Shown here one piece after another: positions 1-13,563 of a stretch of 32,000 bases of DNA. The first letter of the stretch is position 1. Each line of letters opens with the position of its first letter. Origin of the DNA: Halomicronema hongdechloris C2206 (GTDB lineage: Bacteria > Cyanobacteriota > Cyanobacteriia > Phormidesmidales > Phormidesmidaceae); contig NZ_CP021983.2 in NCBI RefSeq assembly GCF_002075285.3, forward strand, positions 1,410,001 to 1,442,000, in the 5' to 3' direction. The notes beneath the pieces are model-generated. The model saw only the letters and a list, made by a program, of their open reading frames with translations, did not search any database and was not told the origin of the DNA. Position numbers and translations under genes: made by a program.

Positions 1-29
1 CTGATGAGTCTGCAGGTGTTGACGTCAGC

Positions 30-305
30 ATGTCTATGAGTCAGGGTGAAGGGGCTGATCTGCCCCAGTTGGTGCGTACGACCACGCGGTTGGAAGAGGA
101 GATTGATAAGGCGCTAAGGCATCTCTGCATGGATGAGAAGATCACCAAGGAGGTGTGGTTTGAAGCGGCGTATCAGTATCTAGCGGAGCATCCCAAGGCG
201 ATGAAGGTGGTGAATGGGATGGCGAAGGAGCGGTATCAACGGCGGAAGCGGGCAGCGGATTTAAGGAAGTTGGAGACGATGCAGAAGCGGTTAAAGGGAT
301 CGTGA
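30..305 (+). CDS. small ribbon-helix-helix-like DNA-binding protein (ParG/CopG-like), possibly 5'-truncated by the window edge
   Basis: 91-aa ORF. The segment VRTTTRLEEEIDKALRHLCMDEKITKEVWFEAAYQYL fits the strand-helix-helix pattern of plasmid ParG-type RHH proteins, and the C-tail is basic. There is no in-frame stop between nt 3 and the ATG at 30, so the frame is open to the left edge. Confidence 0.5.
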   Translation: MSMSQGEGADLPQLVRTTTRLEEEIDKALRHLCMDEKITKEVWFEAAYQYLAEHPKAMKVVNGMAKERYQRRKRAADLRKLETMQKRLKGS

Positions 306-355
306 GCTACCATCCAAGAAAATAGTTTAAAGAGTGATCTTTCTATATAACCGCA

Positions 356-3300
356 ATGCCTCTTCCTGAATCTTTTGCTGCTGGAGCCTTTGCGGCAGGA
401 ATCGCAACGAATCTTGCAAGCGATATCCTTACCCATCATGCTGCCTCGCTCGACAATTCGGTCATTGGCAAAGCCTTGAAATGGGCAGGTTTTGCTCAAC
501 CTAATTTTCAAGAAAGGCTACGGGATGCCCTGGAAAAAGCTTTGAAACTTTATTTTAGTGAGTATTCACAGAGACAGGCCTTGGGGGTCGATGAGTTTTT
601 TCAAAATTCTGTAGTGGTCGAACAGATTGGGGGGGCAATCTTGAATCGGGCTCCTTTAGATAGGGCAGCACTGCAAGATGCCTGGAAAGCATATCTGAGC
701 GCGAACCCAGTTTTGTCACTTTTGAATCAGCAGCAGAACTTTACCGCTGTAGAAATTATTGACGATTTTTTGGGTTGTTATCGGCGAGTTTTGAGAGAGC
801 AGCAGAGCATACCAGAACTAGCCATTACTTATGACCTTCTGGAGCAAAGAGAAGAGTTCATAAGAGAACTGGAGGCTAGTGAGGAGAGACTAAAAAATTA
901 TGTTTCTGAGCTTCTGAAGTACAGATCTTTAATTCAGGAAAAAGACACTTCATTTTATGGTCGAGAAATTGAAGAGAAAATCAAGGAGATTATTAATGAA
1001 TATGCTCATCAACCGTTTGCAGGGCGTTCTAATGAACAACTAGATATTGATCGATTTCTCGAAATAAATAATAAAGGAGTTTTATTGGTAACTGCACCAG
1101 CAGGATTCGGGAAATCTGCACTCTTAATAAATTGGCAGCAAAGATATCGAGAAGATTCCTACATTGTCTTTCACTGCTTCCGGTCTAATTCCGATATCGT
1201 AAGTTCGCTTCAAAATGGTTACCGACATCTTTTAAGGCAACTCCTCCATTACCACAAGCAGAGATATCGAGAGTTTCCCAAGGATGAAAGTGAGATGCGA
1301 GATCTACTTTGCGATCTTATTCAATCCGGCGCTTCTACAGGAGACCGTTTAATTATTATGATTGACGGTTTAGATGAAGCCGATAAAGTTCTGGAACCCT
1401 TTTGGGGATCATCACTACCTGACGGAGTCTACATCATTGCATCAGCTAGAGCCGATAAAAAAGATGAACCAGACTATTTAAAGAATTGGATTATAAATGC
1501 AAAAAGAATGGCGCTGGAACGTTTGCCAATCGAGGCAATTGCAGACTGGTTAAAAAGAGTTAATGAATTAGCTCCTTATGCAACAGACAACTCTTTTATC
1601 GAGACATTAGACAGAATTACTGTGGGCTTCCCTTTATATTTGAAATACCTGATAGATGATTTAAGGTTAGCGGTCATACAGAAACAAGACATCAAGCCTT
1701 TAGTGGCAAAAACTCATAAAGGATTCTCAGTTTATGTAAAAGATCAATTTAAACTTTTAGCTAAGCTTGACGAAGTTCAACAACGAGCGGAAACCCAAGA
1801 ATTATTTGTATTATTGACAGTAGCCCGAGGTCCACTCTCTGAGGATGATATTCAAGTAATCACAAGTTTGACTTCTTGGAATTTGGAAGCGCTTCCTTGG
1901 CAAATCACTCGTTGGTTCAGCATCCGTTCTGGCTTTTATAGTTTTGCCCATCCACTTTTAGCTCAAGAATTTGCGAGTGTTTTAGGCCAACAAGGCCGGA
2001 AATCGGAGCAGAGACTACTTGAATACTGTGCCAATTGGTTAAATCATTACAGCAATTATGCTTTACGACACTATACAGATCACCTGAAAGCGATGGAGCG
2101 GTGGAATGATCTATACGACCTGGCCCGCGACGAGGCTTTTGCAAGTGCTCAACAGGAATATCTTGCAGGTGAGCCTGAAGCTCCATTAAAGGTAGTCAAG
2201 ACTGCTCTACAAAGAAAAGCTGAGACGGATGATGCAGCAGGGATGGCAGAGTTCGTTCTTTTACATGCACAGCGTTGCTCAGACACAATCTTTCAAAAGT
2301 CTCCTCTGGATTTATTGCACAAGGATAATTTGGAAGGTGCGTTAAAGGTAGCAGATTTGAATGAAATCAGAGATTGTATTTTATGGTATCTGCTACTTAT
2401 CTGGGAGCTGTTAAGTCTAAATAGAATAAAAGAAGCAAATAGCGTTGCAAAACGTTTACTGACTAAAAGCCTACCTCGTTTTTCGAGGGACCATTGGCAC
2501 GAAAGGCAAAATTCTGCTTGGAAAAGTGAATATCTAATCTTTTTGCTCCAACGAATATCTCAGCTTCAAGGAAATTTATTTATTGAGCTTTGCCAGCAAC
2601 TCTTAGATAGTCAACTATATGGCCATCTGTGCAGTCGACTCATCGAGAATAACAAACAGCCATTCGTTCTAAATCTAGTAGGCAAAATATCTGCTTTTCA
2701 AGATAGAGATAAATATACCTTATGGAATTTAGTAGATAGCTATGCAGAAGCAAAAGACTTTGTCAAAGCTAGAGAATGCATAGAAAAGATGAGGGATGAA
2801 TCTACAGTCTCCTTTGCCTGGAGAAATTTATCTATTTCATATGCTCAAAATGGGATGGTCTCTGAAGCTATTGAGAGCTGTCAAAAAATCAATAAATATG
2901 ATTCCTACTTTAGAGATGCAGTTTTAGCCGAAGTGGCGTTGGCATATGCAAGACTTGACGATATTGATTCTGCTTTGAAAACTACTCAAGAGCTTGGTGA
3001 TAGACGTGCATATACACTGATTGAAATTGCCAAGATCCAATCTAGAAATCATTTTTATAAATCTTCAAGACAAATATTCAAAGATGTATTAGACATAACC
3101 AAAAACTTCGATTTAGAAAAAAAGGATCTGATTTTTTCAGAGATTGCTTTAGCGGAATCTGAAATCAGTACCCTTCCAGAGGCATTAATTTGGGTCTCGA
3201 AAATTGTTTCGGCCCAAAAAAGAGTATTTACCTTATGCAAGCTGGTAAGAGTGCAACATGCAGCGGGAGATTGTGAATCCGTCAATCATTTGATTGAAAT

Positions 3301-4708
3301 GGCAATTCATGAAGTCGCACTAATCAGTTCTCACTATGAGTTTGAGAAAGCCATCTGCACAATTGCAATTGCTCAAGTTGAATTTCAAGACTTTGAATCT
3401 GCAATGGAATCCATTAATCGAATAAACTCTAAAGACGGTCAATCTAAAATCTTGAGAGAAATCTGTCAAAGCCTTATAACATCGAAAGATTTATGTGAAG
3501 CTTTTAGAATTGCAAAGAGAATTGAAGCAAAAGATCAGAGGATACTCACATTACTTGATGTATTCGATGCATCAGAAAAGTATCAAATAATACTTGTGGA
3601 AGAGAAATCTCACTTGTCTGAGATTCTTTTTGATTCTCTACCCAAATCCCAGGAAATACAATTACAAAAGCTAACCTTAGCAAGAGTCCTAGCTCATGGA
3701 CAAAAGCTACAGGAAGCACTTTATATTACTAATCAAATAGAAGATAAAAATCAAAGAGTATTTGCGCTTGTCGGGATTGCCAGAATCCGAAAAATATATG
3801 ATAAACAAACTTATTTAAATATCTTTGACCAAGTTAGAGAGATTATTCAAGAGTCTACTGACACGAGAGAGCGTAGGTGGTTGTTGGTCAACGTGGTGCA
3901 AAACCTTTCCGAGATCGAAGAATTCTCTCTTGCACTTGAAATTGCCCATGGAAACGAAAATGAATTGGATTTACCATTTTTATTAAAGGAAATTGCACTG
4001 GCGCAAATCAATCAGTGCAGGATAGATTTTCTTTACGACGTGTTAACTGAAATCAAAGAGATTGAAAAAAGACTTCATGAGTTTTTAGGTCATTGGGAAT
4101 CAACAGAATATTTTCAAGTATTGTCTTTACTAGAGGCCAAAAGAGGGAATTTTGAAGAGGCTTTAAAGGCAGCCAAGGAAGTAAATATCATCCCTGAGAA
4201 ACATAGATTAGTAGGAAAAGTAGCTTTAGAACAAGCAAGGCTTGGGGCGCTATGGAAAGCATTTGATATTTTAGAAAAACATTACGATGAATGGTTCAAC
4301 CAAAGCTGGCTCTGGGTTAAAGCTGAATCCCTAGCAGATATTGCTGCACTAAAAGCTGAGCATGGAGAGCAGAATCTTGCACTTCAGATATTTGAAGATG
4401 CTTTCGCATTAGCAAATTCTATAAATCAGGAATTTGACCGAACGATGGGAATTGTGGGAGTGGCCAGAGCACAAATTCGTGCAGGCTTTAGCCAACAAGC
4501 AGTTGAGACTTCGAAAGAAATTCGTGTCAATCAATCGGATTATTGGTCTCGGTTGGCTTTTGCTCTTGCTGAAGCGGGGGACAAAAACAACTTTAAACAC
4601 ATGCTATTTTCTTGTGCCAACGATTTAGAAAGCGCTTATGCAATTTGTATTCATTTATCTCAACTTTATCCAGAGCAGGCTGAAGAAATCGCCAGAGTAG
4701 TAGCATAG
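356..4708 (+). CDS. NACHT-type STAND P-loop NTPase with an unassigned ~225-aa N-terminal domain and a ~850-aa C-terminal TPR-like helical repeat array (NLR-like; candidate antiphage sensor)
   Basis: Uninterrupted 1450-aa ORF. Walker A is APAGFGKS (nt 1094-1117). Walker B is LIIMIDGLDEA (nt 1346-1381), in the hhhhDGLDE form typical of NACHT. The C-terminal half consists of degenerate 35-40 aa Ala/Leu/Ile-patterned helical repeats. Hand-sampled lines give about 35-37% G+C versus 55-70% in the flanks. Confidence 0.85.
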   Translation: MPLPESFAAGAFAAGIATNLASDILTHHAASLDNSVIGKALKWAGFAQPNFQERLRDALEKALKLYFSEYSQRQALGVDEFFQNSVVVEQIGGAILNRAPLDRAALQDAWKAYLSANPVLSLLNQQQNFTAVEIIDDFLGCYRRVLREQQSIPELAITYDLLEQREEFIRELEASEERLKNYVSELLKYRSLIQEKDTSFYGREIEEKIKEIINEYAHQPFAGRSNEQLDIDRFLEINNKGVLLVTAPAGFGKSALLINWQQRYREDSYIVFHCFRSNSDIVSSLQNGYRHLLRQLLHYHKQRYREFPKDESEMRDLLCDLIQSGASTGDRLIIMIDGLDEADKVLEPFWGSSLPDGVYIIASARADKKDEPDYLKNWIINAKRMALERLPIEAIADWLKRVNELAPYATDNSFIETLDRITVGFPLYLKYLIDDLRLAVIQKQDIKPLVAKTHKGFSVYVKDQFKLLAKLDEVQQRAETQELFVLLTVARGPLSEDDIQVITSLTSWNLEALPWQITRWFSIRSGFYSFAHPLLAQEFASVLGQQGRKSEQRLLEYCANWLNHYSNYALRHYTDHLKAMERWNDLYDLARDEAFASAQQEYLAGEPEAPLKVVKTALQRKAETDDAAGMAEFVLLHAQRCSDTIFQKSPLDLLHKDNLEGALKVADLNEIRDCILWYLLLIWELLSLNRIKEANSVAKRLLTKSLPRFSRDHWHERQNSAWKSEYLIFLLQRISQLQGNLFIELCQQLLDSQLYGHLCSRLIENNKQPFVLNLVGKISAFQDRDKYTLWNLVDSYAEAKDFVKARECIEKMRDESTVSFAWRNLSISYAQNGMVSEAIESCQKINKYDSYFRDAVLAEVALAYARLDDIDSALKTTQELGDRRAYTLIEIAKIQSRNHFYKSSRQIFKDVLDITKNFDLEKKDLIFSEIALAESEISTLPEALIWVSKIVSAQKRVFTLCKLVRVQHAAGDCESVNHLIEMAIHEVALISSHYEFEKAICTIAIAQVEFQDFESAMESINRINSKDGQSKILREICQSLITSKDLCEAFRIAKRIEAKDQRILTLLDVFDASEKYQIILVEEKSHLSEILFDSLPKSQEIQLQKLTLARVLAHGQKLQEALYITNQIEDKNQRVFALVGIARIRKIYDKQTYLNIFDQVREIIQESTDTRERRWLLVNVVQNLSEIEEFSLALEIAHGNENELDLPFLLKEIALAQINQCRIDFLYDVLTEIKEIEKRLHEFLGHWESTEYFQVLSLLEAKRGNFEEALKAAKEVNIIPEKHRLVGKVALEQARLGALWKAFDILEKHYDEWFNQSWLWVKAESLADIAALKAEHGEQNLALQIFEDAFALANSINQEFDRTMGIVGVARAQIRAGFSQQAVETSKEIRVNQSDYWSRLAFALAEAGDKNNFKHMLFSCANDLESAYAICIHLSQLYPEQAEEIARVVA

Positions 4709-4732
4709 TCCTTAAATGAGTTGACTGTCCTT

Positions 4733-5335
4733 TTATTCTTCAGCCGCCAAAATTTGTTCCACAGTCAACTCCAACTCGGGAAATGTCAGACACGGCACCG
4801 TCTCCCCCTCGACATATTCCGCCTTCCGATAAACCCTATCCTCCAGCGTCAGCACAATCACCTTCTTGCCCTTCCCCCGCTGACAATACTTCGCTGGAAT
4901 CTGCCCTCGGTAGTCCACAATCCAGAACTCCGGCACCTGCAGCGCCTCATATTCCTCCTGCTTCTCCACCAGGTCCGTACTCCAGTTGCCAGAAGCAATT
5001 TCCACAATCATTCGAGGAACGCTGCGAATCCCTGGTTGCCGATCCTCCCGTCGGGTTGCAGGCCGATCAATCACCGCCACATCGGGGCGTCGGCCCCTCG
5101 TGTTGTCAATCATCAACGCATTCCGCTTTCGCACCGAGTACCGCAGCTTCATGCGCCGATACTGCAGTTCAAACATAAACGAGAGGAACTCTAAAATCTC
5201 TTCATGCCAATCATCCGGCTCCGGCATGAGCACCAGCCTCCCATCAACTAGCTCAAATTCATTGAGTTCATTGCCATCCTCAACGTCAATGAACGCATCA
5301 AACGTCAGGTCTCGCGAAACAGCCGGAATCATCAT
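4733..5335 (-). CDS. Uma2-family (DUF820) putative restriction-endonuclease-like protein
   Basis: 200-aa ORF. It has a PD-(D/E)xK-like pattern (RPDVAVI ... MIVEIASGNWSTDLVEKQEEYEALQVPEFWIVD) characteristic of the Uma2/DUF820 family that is expanded in cyanobacteria. It is convergent with the NACHT gene, with 24 nt between the stops. Confidence 0.8.
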   Translation of the reverse strand: MMIPAVSRDLTFDAFIDVEDGNELNEFELVDGRLVLMPEPDDWHEEILEFLSFMFELQYRRMKLRYSVRKRNALMIDNTRGRRPDVAVIDRPATRREDRQPGIRSVPRMIVEIASGNWSTDLVEKQEEYEALQVPEFWIVDYRGQIPAKYCQRGKGKKVIVLTLEDRVYRKAEYVEGETVPCLTFPELELTVEQILAAEE

Positions 5336-5550
5336 GGCACTTTCGATCAGTCCGTATCGGCGTCAGCTTATCAGCCAATCTGAACACCTTGGCCTACAAA
5401 GGGGCATCAATCTGTTGTCATTCTAATCCATCTTTTTTCGGCCCATAATGACCGCAGCTCAATAGGACTGTGGCTTTAGAGGCAATGATCTTAGGGTCAA
5501 GCCTGCGTCTTAGAATGAGAGGCAAGAAAATTCACTTTTCTCGGGCCGTC

Positions 5551-5820
5551 ATGCAAGTGTTTCTCACGCCAGAGCTTGAACAACTCATCCACCATCAAAT
5601 TGCCACTGGGAAATATCAATCTGCCTTAGAGGTCATCACCGCTGGCTTGCACCTGCTCGAACAACAAAACGACATCTACGAAGGGCGACTGATGGAACTT
5701 CAGCAAGATGCTCAAATCGGACAGGAGGCTGCTCAACGGGAAGAAGTTTTAGAAGGCTCCACCGCAATTAATCAAATTCGAGAAAACCTGCAACTACGCC
5801 ACGCCATATCCGAATCTTGA
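5551..5820 (+). CDS. ParD-like (COG3609-type) RHH antitoxin/regulator with no adjacent toxin gene
   Basis: MQVFLTPELEQLIHHQIATGKYQSALEVITAGLHLLEQQ matches the N-terminal pattern of ParD-family antitoxins. I prefer the ATG at 5551 over the GTG at 5470 given in the ORF track. No ParE/RelE-like ORF follows; the next 190 nt are iterons. Confidence 0.6.
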   Translation: MQVFLTPELEQLIHHQIATGKYQSALEVITAGLHLLEQQNDIYEGRLMELQQDAQIGQEAAQREEVLEGSTAINQIRENLQLRHAISES

Positions 5821-5850
5821 CGCCTTGCCCTGATTTCTCCTACCGCTTCA

Positions 5851-6081
5851 GTAGACATGGTAGACAGTGGTAGACGCTTGGTAGACAGCCAAGCTACTGC
5901 CCAACCCCCTTTATCCATAAGCTTTTAAAGCATTTCGGTAGACAAGTAGACACTTTCTAGAGGCTCCCCACAGACAAAACCTGTCTACTTGTCTACCGTT
6001 TCGCTATAACCCTTATCCATCAGTGATTTCAGCGGTAGACAGGGTGTCTACTGTGACCTCAGATCTGTCTACCGCGTCTAC
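5851..6081. repeat. iteron array: 12 copies of GTAGAC (extended consensus GGTAGACA), 7 forward and 5 inverted; putative replication origin or primase-helicase binding region
   Basis: Forward copies start at 5851, 5860, 5870, 5881, 5939, 5946 and 6035. Inverted copies (GTCTAC) start at 5983, 5991, 6046, 6067 and 6076. The first four are spaced 9-11 bp apart, about one helical turn. 6035-6051 forms the palindrome GTAGACA-GGG-TGTCTAC. Confidence 0.75.
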
Positions 6082-8406
6082 CGTTGCTCGCCACTGCAAC
6101 CGATTCCCCACCCCGCACGTCTCCCCATACCCCATTGCCTCCAGTTCTCGAAAGTGAGATCGAATCACCTCCGCACTCGCCTTCCGCAAGCTACGCTCAT
6201 AGTTGCGCACATCCTTCGCCCGCAGCCACCCTCGCACCCGCGACAACTGAATCAGCTTCGTATAAACCGCCTCCAGCGCACCGTCTACCGAGTCGCCCTC
6301 CGCATACAGCAGCTTCACCTGCCCCATAAACCATCGCGCCAGCTTGATGGCTGCCCCCATCGTCTGGGCCGATATTCTCTCTGCCGGTAGACACCCGTCC
6401 ACCGCCCCCTGCAAACAGTGCAAAATCAACGATAGCCGCCCCGTGTGGCCCTGCATCTTCGAGTAAACCGCCTGCAAACCTTGGTGCGTCTCCGTTACCC
6501 GCAGATGATCCAACTGGTCATACCACTCTGCAAACAGCGCTTTCGCCTCTGCTGTCAGCCGATAGCACTTGGGAGGAGAGTCCTCCAACTGTCGGTACAG
6601 ACCATAAAGCCTTTCCGAAAGGTCATACCGCACTGTCCGTTGGGGAAACGGGGCAGGCTTCAGCGGCAGTAAACACCACAGAAACCGTGCCCACTGCCCA
6701 TTAGTGTCAGAGAAATCGCCCATCATTTCCCGCAAGATGTCCGGCTGAATTGTGCCCGTAATGCTGAGACTGGTGCGAGGAATGCTAATGCGCATGCCAC
6801 TGGCCCGGTCCACCTTCAATCCTGAGCCATCAAAGGCCGTTAGCAGCGACTCCTTGTCGTTGCCTCGACCATTGCGGTACTGGTTCTGCCCCTTGAACAG
6901 GCCCGCCAACTCATCCGGCGTTACCAAAATGCCCCGCTCCGGCTGTTGGGATTGAATGCGGGCGATCGCTTCCCGTGTGGCATCCGAGGTGTGATATTCC
7001 CTGGGCATCGGTTTCCGAGGCCGCATTCCCCTGTCCTCAGCCTTGGCCTGCTCCCAGTCCCGCAGGTTCACCTCATACTCCGCAGCCGCATACTCATAGT
7101 CCTGATCGGCTTCTGCCTGTCGTTTCATGAGCGGCCCCAAAATCTGGCGCTGAAGGGGGCTCTTCTTACTGCCGGAGGGTGCCACCAGCCCCGTAAACAG
7201 AATCGGCGGTACAGAAAACCCCATCCCCGCATCAATTTCCAACTCCGTCCCGACCCGCAGCAGAGAAGCGGCCACTGGCAGCAGTGTTACCAACATGGCT
7301 GCAGGCGTTGCCCCGATCCAAGCCGCTATATGCTCCAATGGTGCCGCCAAATCAGGGTGCAGATATTCTCCTAACTGCAGTTGGTAATCACCAATCTTCA
7401 GGAGTTGCCGGATTTGAGCCGTGCGATCGCCCCGCTCTTCTTGCTGCTCCAAATCCGCCTGCAACGGTTTGACCAAACTCCAAATGTCTTTAACCGTGAG
7501 CTGGGTTTCCCGATGCCACTGCAAAACTCGGGCTGACAGCTCCAACTCAGAGGGATCCGCTGCCAGGTAATGACGAATCTGGTCTTGCAGTCCAGCCACA
7601 TCGAGTGTTTTGGGAACCGCTTGAACGGTTGCCAGTTCCCGCTTTGCCCCAACCGCCGCTCGAATCTGCTCAGCCGTTGCGCCCTCGGCAATCCAGTCCG
7701 CAACATCAAGCCCGCCATGCTTAGGCAGGGTTTGCCAACACAGACTCACCGGATAGGGATAGCACCACTGAGCGTCCGGAAAATCCTGGGCAATCTCTTC
7801 CATGTGAGCCATGCCGACTTGGTCGCGATCGGGGCACAGCACCAGGCGAGCCCCCTCCAAGTCCTGCGCATAGTTGCCATAACTGTGATACTTCTTGGAG
7901 CCACCCAGCGTAGTCGTTGCCGGAATGCCAATGTTCCACAACGCATCCGCGCAGCCTTCCCCCTCCACCATCCAAATGGATTGGCCCGCGGAGATCGCTC
8001 GCCTCACTTCCGCATAGCGATAAATCGGCACCTGCTTCCTAGCCGCTGGCGTCAGCCCCTTCACCCACCGTTGCCCATCCCAGTGGTACTGAACAAAGAA
8101 CTTGGTACCACTCCCGCGATCCACCCGCGTCACCTTCACCAGGGGCTGTCCCTGCCGAGTCGGATAAAAGAAGTCCTGCCGCCGCTGGGGACGAGCAGGC
8201 TTCTCTGCCCGGGCCGATGTCGAGAAATACTGTCCCCATAGACCATCAGCGGTTGCCCCGCGATAGACGTAGCCCTCAATACTGGCATCCTGATCGATAT
8301 AAGTGTGACAGAAGACCACCTCATCATTCCAGCGGCAGTCTGGGTCCTTAGTGCGATCGCAAATTGGGCAGGGGCGCGATCGCCCCGAGTAAACGTACTG
8401 TGTCAT
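6013..8406 (-). CDS. DNA primase / helicase-like replication protein (N-terminal Zn-binding cluster + Toprim + DUF3987-like domain + C-terminal winged-helix-like tail)
   Basis: 797-aa ORF. It has a Cys cluster (CPICDRTKDPDCRWNDEVVFCH), Toprim motifs (IWMVEGEGCADA and LVLCPDRDQVG) and a DUF3987-like block (YHTSDATREAIARI...VTPDELAGLFKGQN). AGGAG lies 6 nt upstream of the ATG at 8406. Confidence 0.85.
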   Translation of the reverse strand: MTQYVYSGRSRPCPICDRTKDPDCRWNDEVVFCHTYIDQDASIEGYVYRGATADGLWGQYFSTSARAEKPARPQRRQDFFYPTRQGQPLVKVTRVDRGSGTKFFVQYHWDGQRWVKGLTPAARKQVPIYRYAEVRRAISAGQSIWMVEGEGCADALWNIGIPATTTLGGSKKYHSYGNYAQDLEGARLVLCPDRDQVGMAHMEEIAQDFPDAQWCYPYPVSLCWQTLPKHGGLDVADWIAEGATAEQIRAAVGAKRELATVQAVPKTLDVAGLQDQIRHYLAADPSELELSARVLQWHRETQLTVKDIWSLVKPLQADLEQQEERGDRTAQIRQLLKIGDYQLQLGEYLHPDLAAPLEHIAAWIGATPAAMLVTLLPVAASLLRVGTELEIDAGMGFSVPPILFTGLVAPSGSKKSPLQRQILGPLMKRQAEADQDYEYAAAEYEVNLRDWEQAKAEDRGMRPRKPMPREYHTSDATREAIARIQSQQPERGILVTPDELAGLFKGQNQYRNGRGNDKESLLTAFDGSGLKVDRASGMRISIPRTSLSITGTIQPDILREMMGDFSDTNGQWARFLWCLLPLKPAPFPQRTVRYDLSERLYGLYRQLEDSPPKCYRLTAEAKALFAEWYDQLDHLRVTETHQGLQAVYSKMQGHTGRLSLILHCLQGAVDGCLPAERISAQTMGAAIKLARWFMGQVKLLYAEGDSVDGALEAVYTKLIQLSRVRGWLRAKDVRNYERSLRKASAEVIRSHFRELEAMGYGETCGVGNRLQWRATVDAVDRSEVTVDTLSTAEITDG

Positions 8407-8744
8407 TATCAGCTCCTGATTCCAGAAGCTGGGCCATCAATCTCAAGCTGCTAATTCTTGGTAAAGCAATGACCAAAGCTGCCTTTTTGTCATGGACATT
8501 TCCAGCAACTTTGCTATAGTTGGAAGCACAAGTTTTACTAGCAGGGCGATCTCTGAAGCGGTTCTGACAAACCCCTTAAAATTCTTGATTGACCCAGCTC
8601 AAATGACAAAAAGTAAAAGCGATGCACCCTGACAATCCAATGCTTAGGGTGTATTTTTTTACCCTTCTGGTTTAGCTATCTTTTTTAGAAGAGTATTCAA
8701 CTTATTGATGAATTCTCAAGAAGTTTTTTGTCCGTTTTACAACC

Positions 8745-9020
8745 TTAAGTTCGCTTTGAAGAGACTCGCTGAGATGATTTCTTTTGGTTGCTTAACAAAC
8801 TGGACTGGTAGATGTGAATAGTCCTTTGGTGAGCAATGGGGTCATGGCGATTATGTAGCCAATCTTGAATCAGTTCTAGGTTGTAGCGGATGCAGCGGCT
8901 ATTGACTCGAACCCAGTGAATGCCCTCGACCAGCAGTCCCTGCAAGCGATAACGTTTTAGAGTCGAGTCGCTGAGTTTGAGATATTGGATGGCTTCCTGT
9001 TTGCTGACAAATTGGGGCAT
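8745..9020 (-). CDS. excisionase/AlpA-like (MerR-type HTH) DNA-binding protein
   Basis: MPQFVSKQEAIQYLKLSDSTLKRYRLQGLLVEGIHWVRVNSRCIRYNLELIQDW fits the short Xis/AlpA HTH pattern. I chose the ATG at 9020 because GAGGAAAGG sits 6 nt upstream. The track ORF start at 9101 adds a non-homologous N-extension. Confidence 0.6.
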   Translation of the reverse strand: MPQFVSKQEAIQYLKLSDSTLKRYRLQGLLVEGIHWVRVNSRCIRYNLELIQDWLHNRHDPIAHQRTIHIYQSSLLSNQKKSSQRVSSKRT

Positions 9021-9228
9021 GGCTGACCTTTCCTCGTTTGTACCGCTGGGGCCAAATCTCATGGGGAGACAGACCGAGTTTGCTGGCAATGACCTGCTCA
9101 ATCCGGCGCGATCGCTGGCGGGTTAAGGCATGGGATACTGCCGAAGGACCAATATCGAGTTCTTTAGCGATGCTGGCCAGGGTCCATCCCTGCTTCCGCA
9201 AAGCGGCTTTAATGTCTTCTACATGCAT
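8899..9228 (-). CDS. Ner/Nlp-like HTH transcriptional regulator (Cro-like early regulator)
   Basis: IKAALRKQGWTLASIAKELDIGPSAVSHALTRQRSRRIEQVIASKLGLSPHEIWPQRY parallels phage Mu Ner / Nlp proteins, which end near WPSRY. The gene is divergent from the cI-like repressor. Its ~45-aa tail overlaps the next gene in another frame. Confidence 0.65.
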   Translation of the reverse strand: MHVEDIKAALRKQGWTLASIAKELDIGPSAVSHALTRQRSRRIEQVIASKLGLSPHEIWPQRYKRGKVSHAPICQQTGSHPISQTQRLDSKTLSLAGTAGRGHSLGSSQ

Positions 9229-9266
9229 AGGCTTTTCTAAGCTCCATCACGATATCGATGAGGCTA

Positions 9267-9282
9267 GCAATTTATAAATTGC
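9267..9282. promoter_or_regulatory. 16-bp perfect palindrome GCAATTTATAAATTGC in the ner / cI-like divergent intergenic region; candidate operator
   Basis: I checked the perfect dyad by reverse-complementing it. A related half-site AATTTGCA recurs at about 9297-9304, and TATAAT at 9294-9299 lies 31 nt upstream of the cI-like ATG. Confidence 0.4.
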
Positions 9283-9329
9283 ATGTCAAGAACTATAATT
9301 TGCAGCTGTAGCCAACGAGTGAATGACAA

Positions 9330-9965
9330 ATGACGAACCCAACCTCTGAGGAGAAATCGGCGGGTGTTGAGAGCGCTGAAACGTTTCCGATGCGCTTAAG
9401 GCAAGCTCTTGGAGATCAAAGTATTCGCGGTTTTGCCCGTGAATGCGGGTTCTCGGACACCGTGCTACGGCAGTATCTGAATGGACAGAGCGAGCCAACC
9501 CGCCCCGCTCTACTCGCTATAGCTCGCACAGCCAACGTCAACTTGGAGTGGCTAGCGGCTGGTCCAGCGACAACAAAAGCTTCGGCTACATCGCCAGCCG
9601 AAAAGTATACCTACAAGGATCCACTAGCCTTTCAGACTGATTGGCTTCAAAAGGAGTTCCCTGATTCGTTTGACAACCTGCTCCTCACTCAGATGCCAGA
9701 CGAAAGTATGGAGCCGACTTTGCATAGGGGAGATTTGGTTCTAGTCGATACGAGCGATCGCGACCTTGACACCATCAGTCATGGTATTTATTTGCTGAAG
9801 TTGGGCGATCGCATTTTGGTGAAACGCCTGCAATATGTCGTAGGCAAGGTCCTGAGAGTTTTAAGTGATCATTCTGCCTATGAAACTTTTTCGATTGGAT
9901 TGCCTGATGAATCCAATCATTTAAGCCTGATGGGAAAGATTGTTTGGAGTGGTCAGAAACTCTGA
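9330..9965 (+). CDS. cI/LexA-type repressor (XRE-family HTH + S24 self-cleaving peptidase domain)
   Basis: 211 aa. The HTH is IRGFARECGFSDTVLRQYLNGQSEPT. S24 motifs are PDESMEPTLHRGDLVLVD (Ser nucleophile) and ILVKRLQ (Lys). Confidence 0.85.
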   Translation: MTNPTSEEKSAGVESAETFPMRLRQALGDQSIRGFARECGFSDTVLRQYLNGQSEPTRPALLAIARTANVNLEWLAAGPATTKASATSPAEKYTYKDPLAFQTDWLQKEFPDSFDNLLLTQMPDESMEPTLHRGDLVLVDTSDRDLDTISHGIYLLKLGDRILVKRLQYVVGKVLRVLSDHSAYETFSIGLPDESNHLSLMGKIVWSGQKL

Positions 9966-10031
9966 ATCCAACATTTCTGACAGAAGCAGCACCACAGAAA
10001 TCACCCGAGGAGTTTGGCTTTGCATCAGTAG

Positions 10032-10709
10032 CTAACACTTCCAGTCCCAAATTTGTTGAAATGCTCGCTTAGCATCTGCCTCCGTCACTAGCGGCAAGCG
10101 GTTCTGGATATAGGCTTCCGAAATCCCAGTTTGGTCCGCAAACTTATCCTCGATGCCGTCCAACAACTGAGGATGGGTATACGTCACTTGCCAATCGCGG
10201 TCCCAAAAGATGCGGTCGGCCAACTCATCAATACATTCTGCCCATTCCAGCGAATCTTCAGATTCCACTTCAATGGGCAGAATGTCATCCTCATCGTCAA
10301 ACTCGGCTTCTAAAACCTTGAGCATTCCCAAGGCATTCAGGGTTTCCCAGATCAGTCTTCGCCAGTAAAACGGATCGCCATCCTCCTCAATACAGTCAGC
10401 GAAGGCAATTTCATCCTCTACCCGTTGGGTCAACCAAACGAAAGGGAAATAGGCTGCCGCTTCGAGCACATTGGTAAGGGGTGGCACCGGCACCTCGGGC
10501 TTGAGTAACGCCTCCAGGCACCGATGCCACAACACCACCCGTTGCTCAAAACTGGCGCTGTCGAAGATGCGGTCTCCAGTGATAACCTCTACATCGTCGA
10601 ATTCAACCGCTTCCTGGCTGAACTCAACCGCCGCTTGGAGAATGTGCAGGTAAAACTTAGCCTCTGTCCCCTCCAGCACGCGCTTGCCCAAATGGGTGTT
10701 CCAGGTCAT
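10032..10709 (-). CDS. hypothetical, strongly acidic protein (225 aa)
   Basis: Long ORF lying between the integrase and the repressor in the integrase orientation. A hand count gives about 48 Asp/Glu versus about 19 Lys/Arg. I recognise no motif. Confidence 0.55.
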   Translation of the reverse strand: MTWNTHLGKRVLEGTEAKFYLHILQAAVEFSQEAVEFDDVEVITGDRIFDSASFEQRVVLWHRCLEALLKPEVPVPPLTNVLEAAAYFPFVWLTQRVEDEIAFADCIEEDGDPFYWRRLIWETLNALGMLKVLEAEFDDEDDILPIEVESEDSLEWAECIDELADRIFWDRDWQVTYTHPQLLDGIEDKFADQTGISEAYIQNRLPLVTEADAKRAFQQIWDWKC

Positions 10710-10741
10710 GACGGATAGCGCTCCTCGACAACTACCAACCC

Positions 10742-11905
10742 CTAAAAGAACGTTGGCACCTCAATCTGACTAATGAGGCCAGCATAGTGCTCTAACAGAA
10801 TTCTAGGATCATGGCCGGTCAGCTTTGCCACTTCAATTACCGACATCCCCTTTGCCAGCATGTGGCTAATAAACGTGTGCCGGGTGTTGTATTGGGTGCG
10901 ATACAATCCGTTTTCTTGAGTCATGCCGCACTTCTTCAAAATGCTCTGCCAGGCCCGATTTAAGAAGTTCGTCGCATCAATTGGTTTGCCCTTGGGGCTG
11001 GGAAAGACCAAGGTATCGGGCTTGTAGTCTTCAGGGCGAATGGCTAATAACAGGTTCTGTAGGTCACCATTGCACGGGAAGAACCGAGCCCGATTCGTTT
11101 TGGTGGCCTTTCGCAAACGAGCCGTGCCAGTGCCCTTGCGCACCAGGGTTTCATTAAACGTAATCCCGGTACAGTCGCGGCGGATATGCTTCCACTGGAG
11201 GCCGATGGCCTCACTGGTTCTACAGCCTGTCATAAACAAGAACCGCACATAGTCGGTGTAGTGGGCGTAGTAGCGATCGCCGCGAAAGGTATCGATAATC
11301 TGCTTAATTTCTGCTTCGTTGAAGGGAGGAACTTTGAGCGGTGGCACTGGGTGACACATCTCTGTCAGCCCGGTAAACGGGTTTTCCCAGCCTGCTTCCA
11401 CCCGATTATGCTGCTGCACCCAGTTACCAAAATCATTCAGAATGATCACCTGTTTCTTAATGGTGGCGGGTGAGGCACTTTGGAGCATAAACGTGACGAA
11501 TTCTTGGGCTTCACGGCGTCCAATGATCTCGCGCCCGAAATTACGCACCTTTTTGGGGATCGGGTTGTACATACCCACGATGGTGAAGGGATTGTCTAGC
11601 CGCTGCCCCTTATCTTCCACAAACTCATCCCAGTGCTGCTTAAAAACATCGGTATAAGTCTGAGTTTTCTCAGGCTCAGCTGCAACCATCGGTAGTAGAT
11701 CCTCAGGCTTATATTTCTGCAAAGTAGGATCAAAGTTACCACTGAGCATATCCAGTTCAATCTGTTGGGCTTTCTGCGCCGCGACTTTACGATTAATGAT
11801 GCTGTCCGGCAGCCCGATTGACAAACAATAACGCTTGCTCCGATAGCTCCATCTCAAGCGTAAGCGTTCGGCGTAAGCTTCAACCTTGACTTGTCCTTTG
11901 GCCAT
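10742..11905 (-). CDS. int: tyrosine-type site-specific integrase
   Basis: 387 aa. It has an Arm-type N-terminus (VKVEAYAERLRLRWSYRSKRYCLSIGL) and catalytic motifs TGCRTSEAIGL, NTRHTFISHML and LTGHDPRILLEHY (R...HxxR...Y). It sits 233 bp from the 3' end of the tRNA-Gly gene. Confidence 0.9.
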   Translation of the reverse strand: MAKGQVKVEAYAERLRLRWSYRSKRYCLSIGLPDSIINRKVAAQKAQQIELDMLSGNFDPTLQKYKPEDLLPMVAAEPEKTQTYTDVFKQHWDEFVEDKGQRLDNPFTIVGMYNPIPKKVRNFGREIIGRREAQEFVTFMLQSASPATIKKQVIILNDFGNWVQQHNRVEAGWENPFTGLTEMCHPVPPLKVPPFNEAEIKQIIDTFRGDRYYAHYTDYVRFLFMTGCRTSEAIGLQWKHIRRDCTGITFNETLVRKGTGTARLRKATKTNRARFFPCNGDLQNLLLAIRPEDYKPDTLVFPSPKGKPIDATNFLNRAWQSILKKCGMTQENGLYRTQYNTRHTFISHMLAKGMSVIEVAKLTGHDPRILLEHYAGLISQIEVPTFF

Positions 11906-12138
11906 AGTTCGGAAGGGGGGTAAAGTACATCGCCTGCACCCTCACTGTCAGTCACGGTTACCTCTGACCCATTCCATCCGCTTTTCGTGCCCGGTGTTTT
12001 ATACCAATTTCGTACCAGTTTTTACACCCAAACTGGCCCAAAGTGACCTAACCTCTCCACCATTCTCCGGGAAATCAATCAACACCATGATGGCTGAAAC
12101 TGTTTCCTGAAGAGTGTTTGAGGCTAAAAAGTTTGAAA

Positions 12139-12209
12139 GCGGGTGAACGGACTCGAACCGTCGACATTCAGCTTGGGAAGCTGACGTTCTACCACTGAAC
12201 TACACCCGC
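12139..12209 (-). tRNA. tRNA-Gly (anticodon CCC), CCA not encoded
   Basis: The reverse complement GCGGGTG-TA-GTTC-AGTGGTA-GAAC-G-TCAGC-TTCCCAA-GCTGA-ATGTC-GACGG-TTCGAGT-CCGTT-CACCCGC folds as a 71-nt cloverleaf with all four stems paired. On the minus strand a TATAAT box (plus-strand ATTATA at 12229-12234) lies 20 nt upstream of the 5' end. Confidence 0.9.
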
Positions 12210-12351
12210 GGGTTGGGGTTGAACGCCTATTATAAGACGATTTGCCGACAAATATCGCGGTCGCCAGGGGGCTTTTGACAGGTGAGGTAGATGACACGGG
12301 CGTGACCAGGCAATGCTCTAGGATAACAGAGCTGTGATCCACTGGCTAACC

Positions 12352-13563
12352 ATGAGGCATCCGTGGCGGTTTCTCCTGGGTCTGATACTGGGGGTTGTGA
12401 TTAGTGTCGTAGGGGCCTGTGAGCGCACCGTAGTGACGTCTCCCCCATCAGCCCCTGAGACGGCAGTACTCTCTGAGGCAACGGATACGTCTGCCTCTAA
12501 GCCGGCAGCCTTACCACCCGAGACCGCTGCCATCGTCGCCAGTGCTGGGCCGCAGGGGCTATACGATCCACCCCGAGGTGACGTGCGGCTAGTAGTCATC
12601 AGCGACCTGAACGGTATCTATGGTGCCACTGACTATGACCCCGAAGTCGACAAAGCCATGGCCCTGCTGCCCTTCTGGCAACCGGACATGGTAGTGTGTA
12701 GCGGCGACATGGTGGCCGGGCAAGATATCAGCCTGCCGGAAGACCGCCTACAGGCCATGTGGGCCGCCTTCGACCAGCACATTGCCGCGCCCCTGCGTCG
12801 GGCCAATCTCCCCTACGGCTTCACCATCGGCAACCATGACGCCTCCAGTGCCCGAGGGGTGGGTAATACCTTTTTGTTTCAAAAAGAGCGAGACATCGCC
12901 GCCGCCTACTGGGACGATCCGGCCCACGACCCGGGGGTGAAGTTCATCGATCGGTTTGAATTTCCCTTCTACTACACCTTTATCTTCAACGACATTTTCT
13001 TTCTGGCCTGGGATGGGTCTTCCCACCATATTCCCGAGGCGAAACTGGCTTGGGTAGAGCAGGCCCTGGCCAGCGAGGCAGCCCAGCAGGCGAAACTGCG
13101 GATTTTGCTGGGACATTTGCCCCTCTATGCGGTGGCGGTGGGGCGCAATGAACCGGCTGAGGTGATGGACAATGCCGATGCCCTGCGGGCAATGCTGGAA
13201 AAGTACGACGTTCACACCTACATCAGCGGCCACCATCACGCCTATTACCCTGCCCACAAGCACGGCATGCAGCTATTGCACATGGGCATTCTCGGCTCTG
13301 GGCCCCGGCCTCTGATCGACGGCGATCTGCCTCCCTGGAAAGCCCTGACCGTGTTAGACATCCGCTTCGACTCACCGCAGGTGACCACCTATACCACCTA
13401 CAACATGCAGACCCTGGAGTTGATTGAGATGGAGCAGTTGCCTCGGTTTTTAACTGGCCACAACGGTATGGTGTTGCGGCGGGATGTGGAGATGGATGAC
13501 CTCAGTGCCTCGGAGCGCAACACCTGTGAAAAGCAACTGGAGGCTGCCCTGTGTAGGGCCTAA
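12352..13563 (+). CDS. metallophosphoesterase-family (calcineurin-like) lipoprotein, probably a phosphate-scavenging phosphoesterase
   Basis: Signal peptide and lipobox MRHPWRFLLGLILGVVISVVGAC. Metallophosphoesterase motifs are VVISDLNG, CSGDMVAG, GNHD and ISGHHH. It lies directly upstream of pstSCA. The ORF track start is GTG at 12334. Confidence 0.8.
   Translation: MRHPWRFLLGLILGVVISVVGACERTVVTSPPSAPETAVLSEATDTSASKPAALPPETAAIVASAGPQGLYDPPRGDVRLVVISDLNGIYGATDYDPEVDKAMALLPFWQPDMVVCSGDMVAGQDISLPEDRLQAMWAAFDQHIAAPLRRANLPYGFTIGNHDASSARGVGNTFLFQKERDIAAAYWDDPAHDPGVKFIDRFEFPFYYTFIFNDIFFLAWDGSSHHIPEAKLAWVEQALASEAAQQAKLRILLGHLPLYAVAVGRNEPAEVMDNADALRAMLEKYDVHTYISGHHHAYYPAHKHGMQLLHMGILGSGPRPLIDGDLPPWKALTVLDIRFDSPQVTTYTTYNMQTLELIEMEQLPRFLTGHNGMVLRRDVEMDDLSASERNTCEKQLEAALCRA

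Follow-up and report, generated by a model that had tools for sequence, protein, structure and literature searches.

Does the AT-rich gene at positions 356..4708 of a 32,000-nucleotide stretch of Halomicronema hongdechloris C2206 (contig NZ_CP021983.2, positions 1,410,001 to 1,442,000; the whole stretch is referred to as the window) encode an immune protein, and which role would its N-terminal domain play in it? The evidence presented here favors the view that the gene encodes a self-contained conflict protein resembling nucleotide-binding leucine-rich repeat (NLR) proteins, likely with a function in antiphage defense or abortive infection, in which the N-terminal domain (N-dom in the following) would act as the effector. 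A probability of roughly 0.55 is assigned to this reading. The open reading frame (ORF) is the sole long one in that stretch and its product is 100% identical to the hypothetical protein XM38_013400 of H. hongdechloris C2206. An earlier reading made from the letters alone (the sequence-only reading) had described a 1450-aa ORF with the motifs APAGFGKS and LIIMIDGLDEA; the ORF was confirmed and both motifs were located. The gene and its parts are the following:

356..4708, + strand: complete ORF with ATG start, 1450 amino acids plus stop; G+C 39.0%, G+C at third codon positions (GC3) 32%, no copy of the highly iterated palindrome HIP1
356..910, + strand: N-dom, residues 1-185, all-alpha with 10 predicted helices
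368..457, + strand: helix 1 of N-dom, residues 5-34, Gly/Ala-rich and moderately hydrophobic
911..1030, + strand: charged helical linker or stalk, residues ~186-225
1031..2215, + strand: NTPase module of the STAND type (signal transduction ATPases with numerous domains), residues 226-620; NPHP3_N, AAA_16 and AAA_22 match residues 221-344
1094..1117, + strand: Walker A motif APAGFGKS, residues 247-254, with lysine K253
1349..1381, + strand: Walker B motif LIIMIDGLDEA, residues 332-342, in the NACHT-type DGLDE form
2216..4705, + strand: C-terminal helical repeats resembling tetratricopeptide (TPR) and pentatricopeptide (PPR) repeats, residues 621-1450, presumed sensor
2456-3955, + strand: hypervariable stretch within the repeats, residues ~700-1200

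These features support the assignment of the gene product as a tripartite NLR-like STAND protein. Its NTPase was judged by the Pfam models NACHT (PF05729), NPHP3_N (PF24883) and AAA_16 (PF13191) at their curated gathering thresholds. NPHP3_N (37.6 bits, cut-off 24.8) and AAA_16 (37.0 bits, cut-off 32.6) both pass, while NACHT stays at 16.7 bits and under its cut-off of 26.7. A Walker A motif of the form [AG]xxxxGK[ST] and a Walker B motif of the NACHT-type form hhhhDGhDE are both found. The NTPase is thus a NACHT-like STAND module of the NPHP3_N/AAA_16 type, for which the label "NACHT" is approximate; the previous designation as a NACHT/STAND gene holds for the intact Walker motifs and the STAND class, but not for the NACHT model itself. 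Similarly, the TPR-like repeats that had been described reach only sub-threshold TPR/PPR matches in the window protein (residues 781-878 and 1323-1354), whereas clear TPR domains (TPR_12, TPR_1 and related) are found in its homologues. A comparison with the closest full-length homologue, P0002, gave 61-79% identity for residues 1-600, 17-28% for residues 700-1200 and 39-52% for the C-terminal end, a divergence profile as expected of a diversifying sensor.

The gene is set apart from its surroundings by its composition. Its G+C content of 52/33/32% at the first, second and third codon position includes a GC3 value far below that of the 18 other ORFs of the window (47-78%), and G+C declines along the gene from 43% in N-dom to 40% in the NTPase and 37% in the repeats, with 300-nt windows inside the gene ranging from 34 to 45%. 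The left flank (1-300) has 54% G+C and the right flank 58% (4801-5100) and 47-49% (5101-6000); the remaining part of the island described further below (4709-12200) has a mean of 52.3% and the region past its tRNA gene one of 58.2%. The shift spans about 60 nt at both gene ends: in 60-nt windows the G+C fraction changes from 0.57 at 240 to 0.33 at 320 on the left edge and from 0.38 at 4700 to 0.52 at 4740 on the right edge. The claim of an AT-rich gene with sharp borders is borne out by these values and by the computed G+C and GC3 profile, in which the gene is an outlier against the 18 window ORFs, although the 35-37% G+C estimated by the sequence-only reading was slightly low and the 55-70% given for both flanks was overstated.

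HIP1 (GCGATCGC) occurs 18 times elsewhere in the window, as compared to 0.57 copies expected by chance, and the eight island positions listed in the sequence-only reading are all exact. As had been claimed, the gene itself contains no copy, and a scan of it for HIP1 with one mismatch and for CGATCG found neither. The Poisson probability of finding no copy in the gene is ~0.06 if the HIP1 density of the whole window is applied and ~0.009 with that of the island; given these values and the fact that the absence is not independent of the low G+C content, it is weak evidence when taken as a separate statistic. In a homologue that resides in a HIP1-rich genome, the coding sequence contains 12 HIP1 sites, and the closest relative of the window gene (L001, 38% G+C) has none, like the window gene. 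Taken together, the data support the STAND gene as compositionally foreign cargo. Since its composition (GC3 32%) differs even from that of the island backbone (GC3 47-65%), the gene is probably a later, gene-sized addition to the island. The case shows that sharp discontinuities of GC3 and HIP1 within an island can flag recent cyanobacterial defense cargo.

A survey of homologues yielded 58 proteins, mostly from filamentous cyanobacteria such as Coleofasciculus, Microcoleus, Moorena and Tychonema. Among the cyanobacterial homologues the NTPase core is 40-67% identical while the N-termini differ, and among these STAND proteins N-dom is shared by P0002 alone (71% identity). The last ~30-50 residues of the linker are common to all sister proteins, whatever N-terminal module precedes them. 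One group of homologues carries a SMEK domain (PF21941) at its N-terminus. SMEK as a relative of N-dom could be ruled out (hhalign probability 0.1%). Another group has an N-terminus of only ~100 residues and a TIR gene immediately upstream, and the first 57 residues of the STAND protein are 40% identical (E 4e-7) to a stretch of ~55 residues at the C-terminus of the upstream TIR protein. This match points to a shared small adaptor that would couple a TIR effector to the NTPase in these sister genes. Because the homologues keep their NTPase core and yet swap their N-termini, the N-terminal position appears to be a slot for an effector or for effector recruitment in this STAND family.

The pairs of a TIR gene and a STAND gene with short N-terminus lie at 1257-1982 and 1988-5983 of locus L016 and at 6750-7995 and 8001-12287 of locus L015, and the same STAND residues 1-57 also match a 95-aa ORF in L015. 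The SMEK N-termini (residues 1-165 of P0021 and P0026-P0039) share a conserved "DLGDE...VAFQIT" pattern, which resembles, as read from the alignment, the motif of PD-(D/E)xK nucleases; if this likeness holds, SMEK would be the nuclease effector of its branch. Homologue P0020 is named a MalT-like transcription regulator in one source; this name was rejected, as the protein has no helix-turn-helix (HTH) domain. In the plasmid collection, the full-length window protein was matched over its NTPase region only. Homologue P0005 is surrounded by a defense island, in which a patatin gene is accompanied by Nuc_deoxyri_tr2 and by four TIR genes, one of them of the ThsB type. The survey of neighborhoods that had been proposed along with the sequence-only reading thus places both homologues of the full protein and relatives of the domain next to defense genes.

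That the first ~225 residues match nothing, as had been noted, is true for curated libraries: neither residues 1-225 nor the isolated N-dom gave a credible match in Pfam (E<=10), NCBIfam or PADLOC, and a 55-sequence N-dom profile found no match among PDB sequences. In sequence space the statement does not hold. When residues 1-180 were compared exhaustively by phmmer with 1.84 billion representative proteins, clustered at 50% identity, the matching clusters numbered at least 91 at E<=1e-3, of which 51 remain at E<=1e-10 and 18 at E<=1e-30. A word-indexed search returned no protein for N-dom alone and three for the 55-sequence profile; the census is therefore based on phmmer. Accordingly, N-dom is, as judged by sequence similarity, a real, widespread, modular and unannotated family and no orphan, and the earlier idea of a new effector domain stands insofar as N-dom is absent from curated libraries and sits in the effector slot, but has to be adjusted to a family of wide distribution. 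A scan of genomes with a 10-sequence alignment gave 6 loci, the H. hongdechloris genome not being among those returned; the hosts identified, together with the present Halomicronema, are Cyanobacteria (Nodosilinea, Symploca, Xenococcus) and Anaerolineae. No N-dom was seen in the phage collection. The domain is N-terminal in nearly all members and internal in P0072, P0077 and P0113; of these, P0077 (2094 aa) has N-dom at 572-737 and a C-terminal Csx3 domain, and in P0113 (853 aa) it occupies 348-507 and follows a kinase domain that appears to be active, with HRD present.

A structural model of N-dom was generated with AlphaFold2 from the family alignment (predicted local distance difference test, pLDDT, 82; predicted template modeling score 0.70), since the single-sequence model of residues 1-230 (pLDDT 46) was unusable. 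The domain is predicted to be all-helical: a long helix 1 (5-34) precedes a compact core (50-149, pLDDT 85-96), and residues 152-184 form a long stalk helix at the C-terminal end. Foldseek, which had been named as a check, found no credible match for this model in PDB (best E 0.89, TM-score 0.26) or BFVD (best E 0.86). In the alignment of 55 members, conservation is highest at hydrophobic and glycine positions (L41, F67, F81, F138, G38, G45), and there is neither an invariant polar residue nor a conserved constellation of Asp, Glu, His, Cys or Ser, which argues against N-dom being an enzyme. Within helix 1, N19 is conserved to 85%, Ser or Thr at residue 22 to 89% and D23 to ~58%. The family starts with the consensus MPIPEPFxxxAISAGILTNIATDILKH (MPIPEPF-x-AISAGILTNIATDIL), and the start codon of the window gene agrees with the shorter form MPxPEPF; the acidic-Pro-Phe element reads PEPF in the family and PESF in the window protein. 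The Kyte-Doolittle maximum over 19 residues of helix 1 is 1.34 in the window protein and 1.26 on average in the family, with 4 of the 55 members reaching 1.6. The hydrophobic first helix seen before is therefore only moderately so, and its proposed membrane activity is an analogy; N-dom as a constitutive transmembrane anchor was rejected on hydropathy.

Apart from its NTPase partners (NACHT, NB-ARC, nSTAND1/3/5 and NPHP3_N, one of them with an FGE-sulfatase sensor), N-dom is fused to SAVED, EAD7, bDLD1, FHA and protein kinase domains. The SAVED fusion, P0061, consists of N-dom, a coiled coil and SAVED and is encoded at a type II locus of the cyclic oligonucleotide-based antiphage signaling system (CBASS) on a 5.7-kb contig (L012), 12 bp from a cluster of Cap3 (JAB), Cap2 (E1-E2) and CD-NTase genes, which PADLOC identified with E-values of 8.3e-48, 8.5e-182 and 5.5e-120, respectively. 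The CBASS-effector models of PADLOC align to the SAVED half of P0061 only and none aligns to its N-dom half, which leaves N-dom as the sole candidate for a killing module on this contig. In a further locus (L013), the end of an N-dom-EAD7 gene and the beginning of a gene for a Pkinase-EAD7-STAND protein share 4 bp. EAD7 is an effector-associated domain (EAD), and gene pairs of the kind effector-EAD and EAD-NTPase have been described by Kaur et al. (PMC7159879). In the L013 pair, N-dom would take the place of the effector. EAD1 and Trypco1 genes precede some N-dom genes as well. As judged by a hidden Markov model of the family applied to six-frame translations, the window and each of 14 related loci contain one N-dom, which fits poorly with a homotypic adaptor acting in cis. 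For the window gene no partner gene is evident, so the single-gene module proposed by the sequence-only reading is plausible.

A different arrangement is seen in P0083 and P0089 (loci L017-L020), which are stand-alone proteins of 462-492 aa composed of N-dom, a helical stalk and a kinase-like domain. The latter has HRG in place of HRD and GFD or GLD in place of DFG; due to these changes, both proteins are predicted to be pseudokinases, with the domain order of MLKL. P0083 is found directly downstream of a type I restriction-modification operon (hsdM, hsdS, hsdR, YgjP-like) on 9 contigs, and P0089 adjoins a TIR-NB-ARC-TPR gene. In a limited collection of literature, no description of a bacterial fusion of an executioner domain and a pseudokinase was found.

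Two other N-dom loci may represent an undescribed multi-gene conflict system. In Nodosilinea sp. LEGE 07088 (L002:5707-13799), N-dom occurs in an 8-kb four-gene block of 38-47% G+C within a genome of 59%. Its first gene encodes an N-dom 72% identical to that of the window protein plus ~350 aa with two TIR/NDT-like "RNVYLELGIAIG" motifs, the second an 834-aa protein with no family match, the third a 708-aa protein with three RRM domains and the fourth a 616-aa protein in which a TIR-like region occurs together with two RNA polymerase alpha-CTD domains and sigma-70 region 4. The second locus (L004, Anaerolineales) comprises genes for an N-dom protein (564 aa), an 843-aa protein and a GAF-GAF-receiver protein.

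The observations made here cover the architecture of the protein, its foreign composition, its setting on an island, and the existence, modularity and effector-slot occupancy of the N-dom family; we infer from there a course of ligand sensing, oligomerization, membrane targeting and cell death. The hypervariable C-terminal TPR-like repeats would recognize a ligand derived from an invader and thereby trigger nucleotide-dependent oligomerization of the NACHT-like NTPase (Walker A K253; Walker B D337, D340 and E341). Oligomerization would gather the ~180-residue all-helical N-terminal domains via the helical stalk, and N-dom would act as effector, namely as a non-enzymatic killing module interchangeable among immune systems. 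On comparative evidence, N-dom is probably the effector. As to the manner of killing, helix 1 might be released to attack the membrane, following the logic of HeLo, Bell/Babybell, plant coiled-coil (CC) and MLKL four-helix-bundle (4HB) domains. Helix 1 is in this respect a candidate releasable, membrane-inserting helix by analogy, and action by membrane targeting is conceivable, though somewhat short of probable. It is favored over other modes of attack because N-dom appears non-enzymatic, forms a helical domain at NLR N-termini, starts with a sequence resembling the "MEPIS" region, and is fused to pseudokinases.

The likeness to these membrane-active domains deserves a closer description. As in HeLo, Hell, Bell, Babybell, plant CC and MLKL domains, a small all-helical domain without catalytic residues is placed at the N-terminus of an NLR protein, its helix 1, which follows an acidic residue and Pro and has many small residues, is the best-defined motif, and the domain is either fused to the NLR protein or found on a separate, adaptor-linked protein (10.1101/2020.01.06.895854; 10.1101/2024.11.07.622273). 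As for MLKL, some relatives carry a pseudokinase. An acidic-Pro-small-residue region, called MEPIS, has been reported for proteins of the Bell, Hell, Avs2 and bNACHT groups, in which helices are proposed to form a cup around a pore-lining helix 1 (10.1101/2024.11.07.622273). The start of N-dom seems to fit this published description, as far as so short a motif, compared without statistics, can show. In contrast to the HeLo/Bell class with its 80-140 residues and 4-5 helices, N-dom has ~180 residues and 10 helices; from Bell (~100 residues) in particular it is, going by the descriptions, likewise set apart by size and helix count. Homology to HeLo was rejected at the level of both sequence and fold, so that the resemblance to HeLo, Bell and MLKL is one of analogy.

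Several observations weigh against the proposed reading. An hhalign comparison of the 55-sequence N-dom profile with the HeLo domain of HET-s gave a probability of 0.4% (the HET-s sequence was verified to be identical to PDB 2WVN, and HET-s is present in the PDB sequence copy used), Foldseek shows no match to a HeLo, 4HB or CC domain and no E below 0.86 in PDB and BFVD, and the HeLo-type models of Pfam gave nothing for N-dom at E<=10. Helix 1, with its conserved polar N19 and D23, lies below the usual hydrophobicity of transmembrane segments. The SAVED gene of L012 is convergent, not co-directional, with the three other CBASS genes, and the CBASS and EAD7 contexts are represented by one metagenomic contig each. 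PADLOC 2.0.0, which had been named as a check, sees the window protein via a weak generic STAND_TPR match alone (PDLC01173, 39.5 bits, residues 213-341), and none of its Avs and bNACHT models matches. The membership of the gene in the island is inferred from its position only, as the left end of the island lies beyond the window. Finally, N-dom is also found on enzymatic effectors, namely TIR_2 (P0085), CAP12-type TIR (P0082), Trypsin_2 (P0088) and, weakly, SIR2_2 (P0100), and these fusions would suit a role as adaptor or in oligomerization at least equally well.

According to this main alternative, which we regard as rather unlikely, N-dom would be a homotypic adaptor or polymerization domain of the Death-fold or EAD-like kind, and the activated STAND protein would nucleate N-dom assemblies that recruit and switch on separate proteins, encoded at other sites of the genome, in which N-dom is joined to TIR, trypsin, SIR2 or a kinase. 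The joint occurrence of N-dom on NTPases and on the enzymes just named, as well as on kinases, is in line with this, as a distribution over NTPases and effectors is how EADs were defined (PMC7159879). Furthermore, the N-dom-trypsin gene of L009 follows a Trypco1 gene, which is the usual position of EAD-trypsin genes, and the missing conserved catalytic residues would suit an interaction domain as well. However, with one N-dom copy per locus in the window and the 14 related loci, no partner in cis is seen; the CBASS locus L012 would be left without any effector; L013 would join adaptor to adaptor, again with no effector; and no EAD, bDLD or Death model of Pfam matches N-dom. An enzymatic effector of a new fold, such as a nuclease or an NAD-consuming or lipid-modifying enzyme, is very improbable. 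It would account for the effector slot in which N-dom is found, most characterized STAND and CBASS effectors being enzymes, and residues C141 (71%), Y142 (80%), K42 (76%) and N19 (85%) are moderately conserved, but no polar residue is invariant in the 55 aligned members, the hydrophobic core is conserved best and N-dom resembles no enzyme fold in sequence or structure.

It also appears improbable, though less strongly so, that N-dom is a regulatory or localization module, be it a membrane or cell-pole tether or an autoinhibitory cap, with the STAND protein signaling via a partner in trans or having a role outside defense such as the control of cell fate in filamentous bacteria. STAND proteins of filamentous Cyanobacteria and Chloroflexota have also been linked to multicellular behavior (PMC7159879), the N-dom family is found in filamentous members of the same two phyla, the domain has promiscuous fusion partners (sensors, enzymes and NTPases), and its helix 1 is amphipathic and not of transmembrane grade. 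Such a module would nevertheless leave unexplained why the sole non-core gene of a CBASS operon is N-dom-SAVED and why SMEK or a TIR-recruiting adaptor stands at the same position in sister STAND proteins, and the gene is recent foreign cargo of a mobile island, which speaks against functions in housekeeping or development.

The reading of N-dom as the effector of an NLR-like conflict protein also determines how the gene compares to known systems. Like Avs1-5 and bNACHT proteins, the window protein combines an N-terminal effector position, a central STAND P-loop NTPase (GKS, DGLDE) and a fast-diverging C-terminal sensor of the TPR type; within one clade of the NTPase the module in the effector slot can be exchanged, and the gene lies on a mobile island. 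It differs from them in that it matches no PADLOC 2.0.0 family of theirs, in that its NTPase is of the NPHP3_N/AAA_16 type with a sub-threshold NACHT score, and in that N-dom is absent from the annotated Avs and bNACHT effectors of the libraries searched. EAD1-11 and the bacterial Death-like domains were described from NTP-dependent conflict systems by Kaur, Burroughs, Iyer and Aravind (PMC7159879, PMC8195603). With these, N-dom shares the organisms (filamentous Cyanobacteria and Chloroflexota), neighborhoods with EAD1, EAD7, Trypco1, bDLD1, FGS/FGE-sulfatase and nSTAND NTPases, and the occurrence on NTPases and on TIR or trypsin effectors. In contrast to them, it was not found as a homotypic pair in the window or the 14 related loci, it matches none of the EAD or bDLD models of Pfam, and it is itself fused to EAD7 and bDLD1, which puts it in the effector position. 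Like the SAVED effectors of CBASS (Cap4 nuclease-SAVED, TM-SAVED, TIR-SAVED), the relative P0061 is encoded beside CD-NTase, Cap2 and Cap3, whereas the window gene has no SAVED domain and the window no CBASS operon.

Among the immune sensors of bacteria, NLR-like STAND proteins form a known class, whose value lies largely in the effectors. The window gene appears to combine this known architecture with an undescribed effector family: N-dom is absent from the 2025 Pfam copy and likewise missing from NCBIfam, PADLOC, PDB and BFVD, and yet present in at least 91 clusters across Cyanobacteria and Chloroflexota, so that defense-finder tools currently overlook such genes entirely. It holds the effector position in three otherwise unrelated designs, namely the NLR fusion, the second-messenger sensor of CBASS and the adaptor-coupled NTPase. 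A tentative and more doubtful extension is that N-dom represents an undescribed family of executioners of prokaryotic regulated cell death, a plug-in killing module across immune architectures and a bacterial counterpart, by descent or convergence, of HeLo, CC and 4HB domains. These architectures would comprise STAND/NLR proteins of at least six clades, type II CBASS via SAVED, systems with EAD7 or Death-like adaptors, and the combination of N-dom, helical brace and pseudokinase, with the window gene as an NLR-fused representative soon after horizontal transfer. If N-dom were indeed a non-enzymatic membrane executioner, it would add a killing module to the prokaryotic immune repertoire, and the pseudokinase fusions would offer a testable bacterial analogue of MLKL-type necroptosis.

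The claim that the gene is cargo of an island is supported by the genes to its right, where a tyrosine integrase adjoins the 3′ end of a tRNA-Gly(CCC) gene. The neighboring features are:

30..305, + strand: 91-aa ORF without family match, G+C 54%, GC3 70%; left compositional boundary
4733..5335, - strand: Uma2-family protein (putative restriction endonuclease-like), convergent with the STAND gene; right compositional boundary
5470..5820, + strand: ORF for a ParD-like ribbon-helix-helix antitoxin
6013..8406, - strand: DUF3987 protein, 797 aa, island backbone
8745..9101, - strand: HTH_17 ORF (excisionase/AlpA-like), weak match
9330..9965, + strand: HTH-Peptidase_S24 repressor (LexA/CI-like)
10742..11905, - strand: tyrosine integrase with Arm-DNA-bind_2 and Phage_integrase domains
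12138..12209, - strand: tRNA-Gly(CCC), attachment site and right end of the island

As in other tRNA-integrated islands and satellite-like elements, a tyrosine integrase by the tRNA gene is accompanied by an HTH_17 excisionase-like protein, a CI/LexA-like repressor and DUF3987, and a cargo region contains toxin-antitoxin-like and defense-like genes. Unlike in such elements, the second attachment site and the left end lie beyond the window and the composition of the cargo differs from that of the backbone. A direct repeat of the tRNA 3′ end was sought in 1-12400 and none was found, which places the left end of the island outside the window.

Some further observations were made in this region. 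A 9-bp inverted repeat, ATTTAAGGA / TCCTTAAAT, flanks the STAND gene at 259-267 and 4709-4717, near both compositional boundaries. With ~0.1-0.2 such matches expected by chance in two short stretches, it is suggestive at best, and its interpretation as an insertion scar is unconvincing, being near chance expectation. Scans for promoters and terminators gave sites no more numerous than in shuffled sequences. The intergenic region before the DUF3987 gene (5840-6050) contains, as seen by eye, several "GGTAGACA" and "GTCTAC" words on both strands (e.g., at 5858, 5868, 5881, 5938, 5946, 5985 and 6036), which look like iterated, putative binding sites of a replication or regulation module of the island. 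Outside the island, the ORF at 18940-24129 (+ strand, 1729 aa), with a host-like G+C content of 56%, contains a strong TPR block at residues ~770-1126, which matches TPR proteins of the PDB with E-values down to 1e-56.

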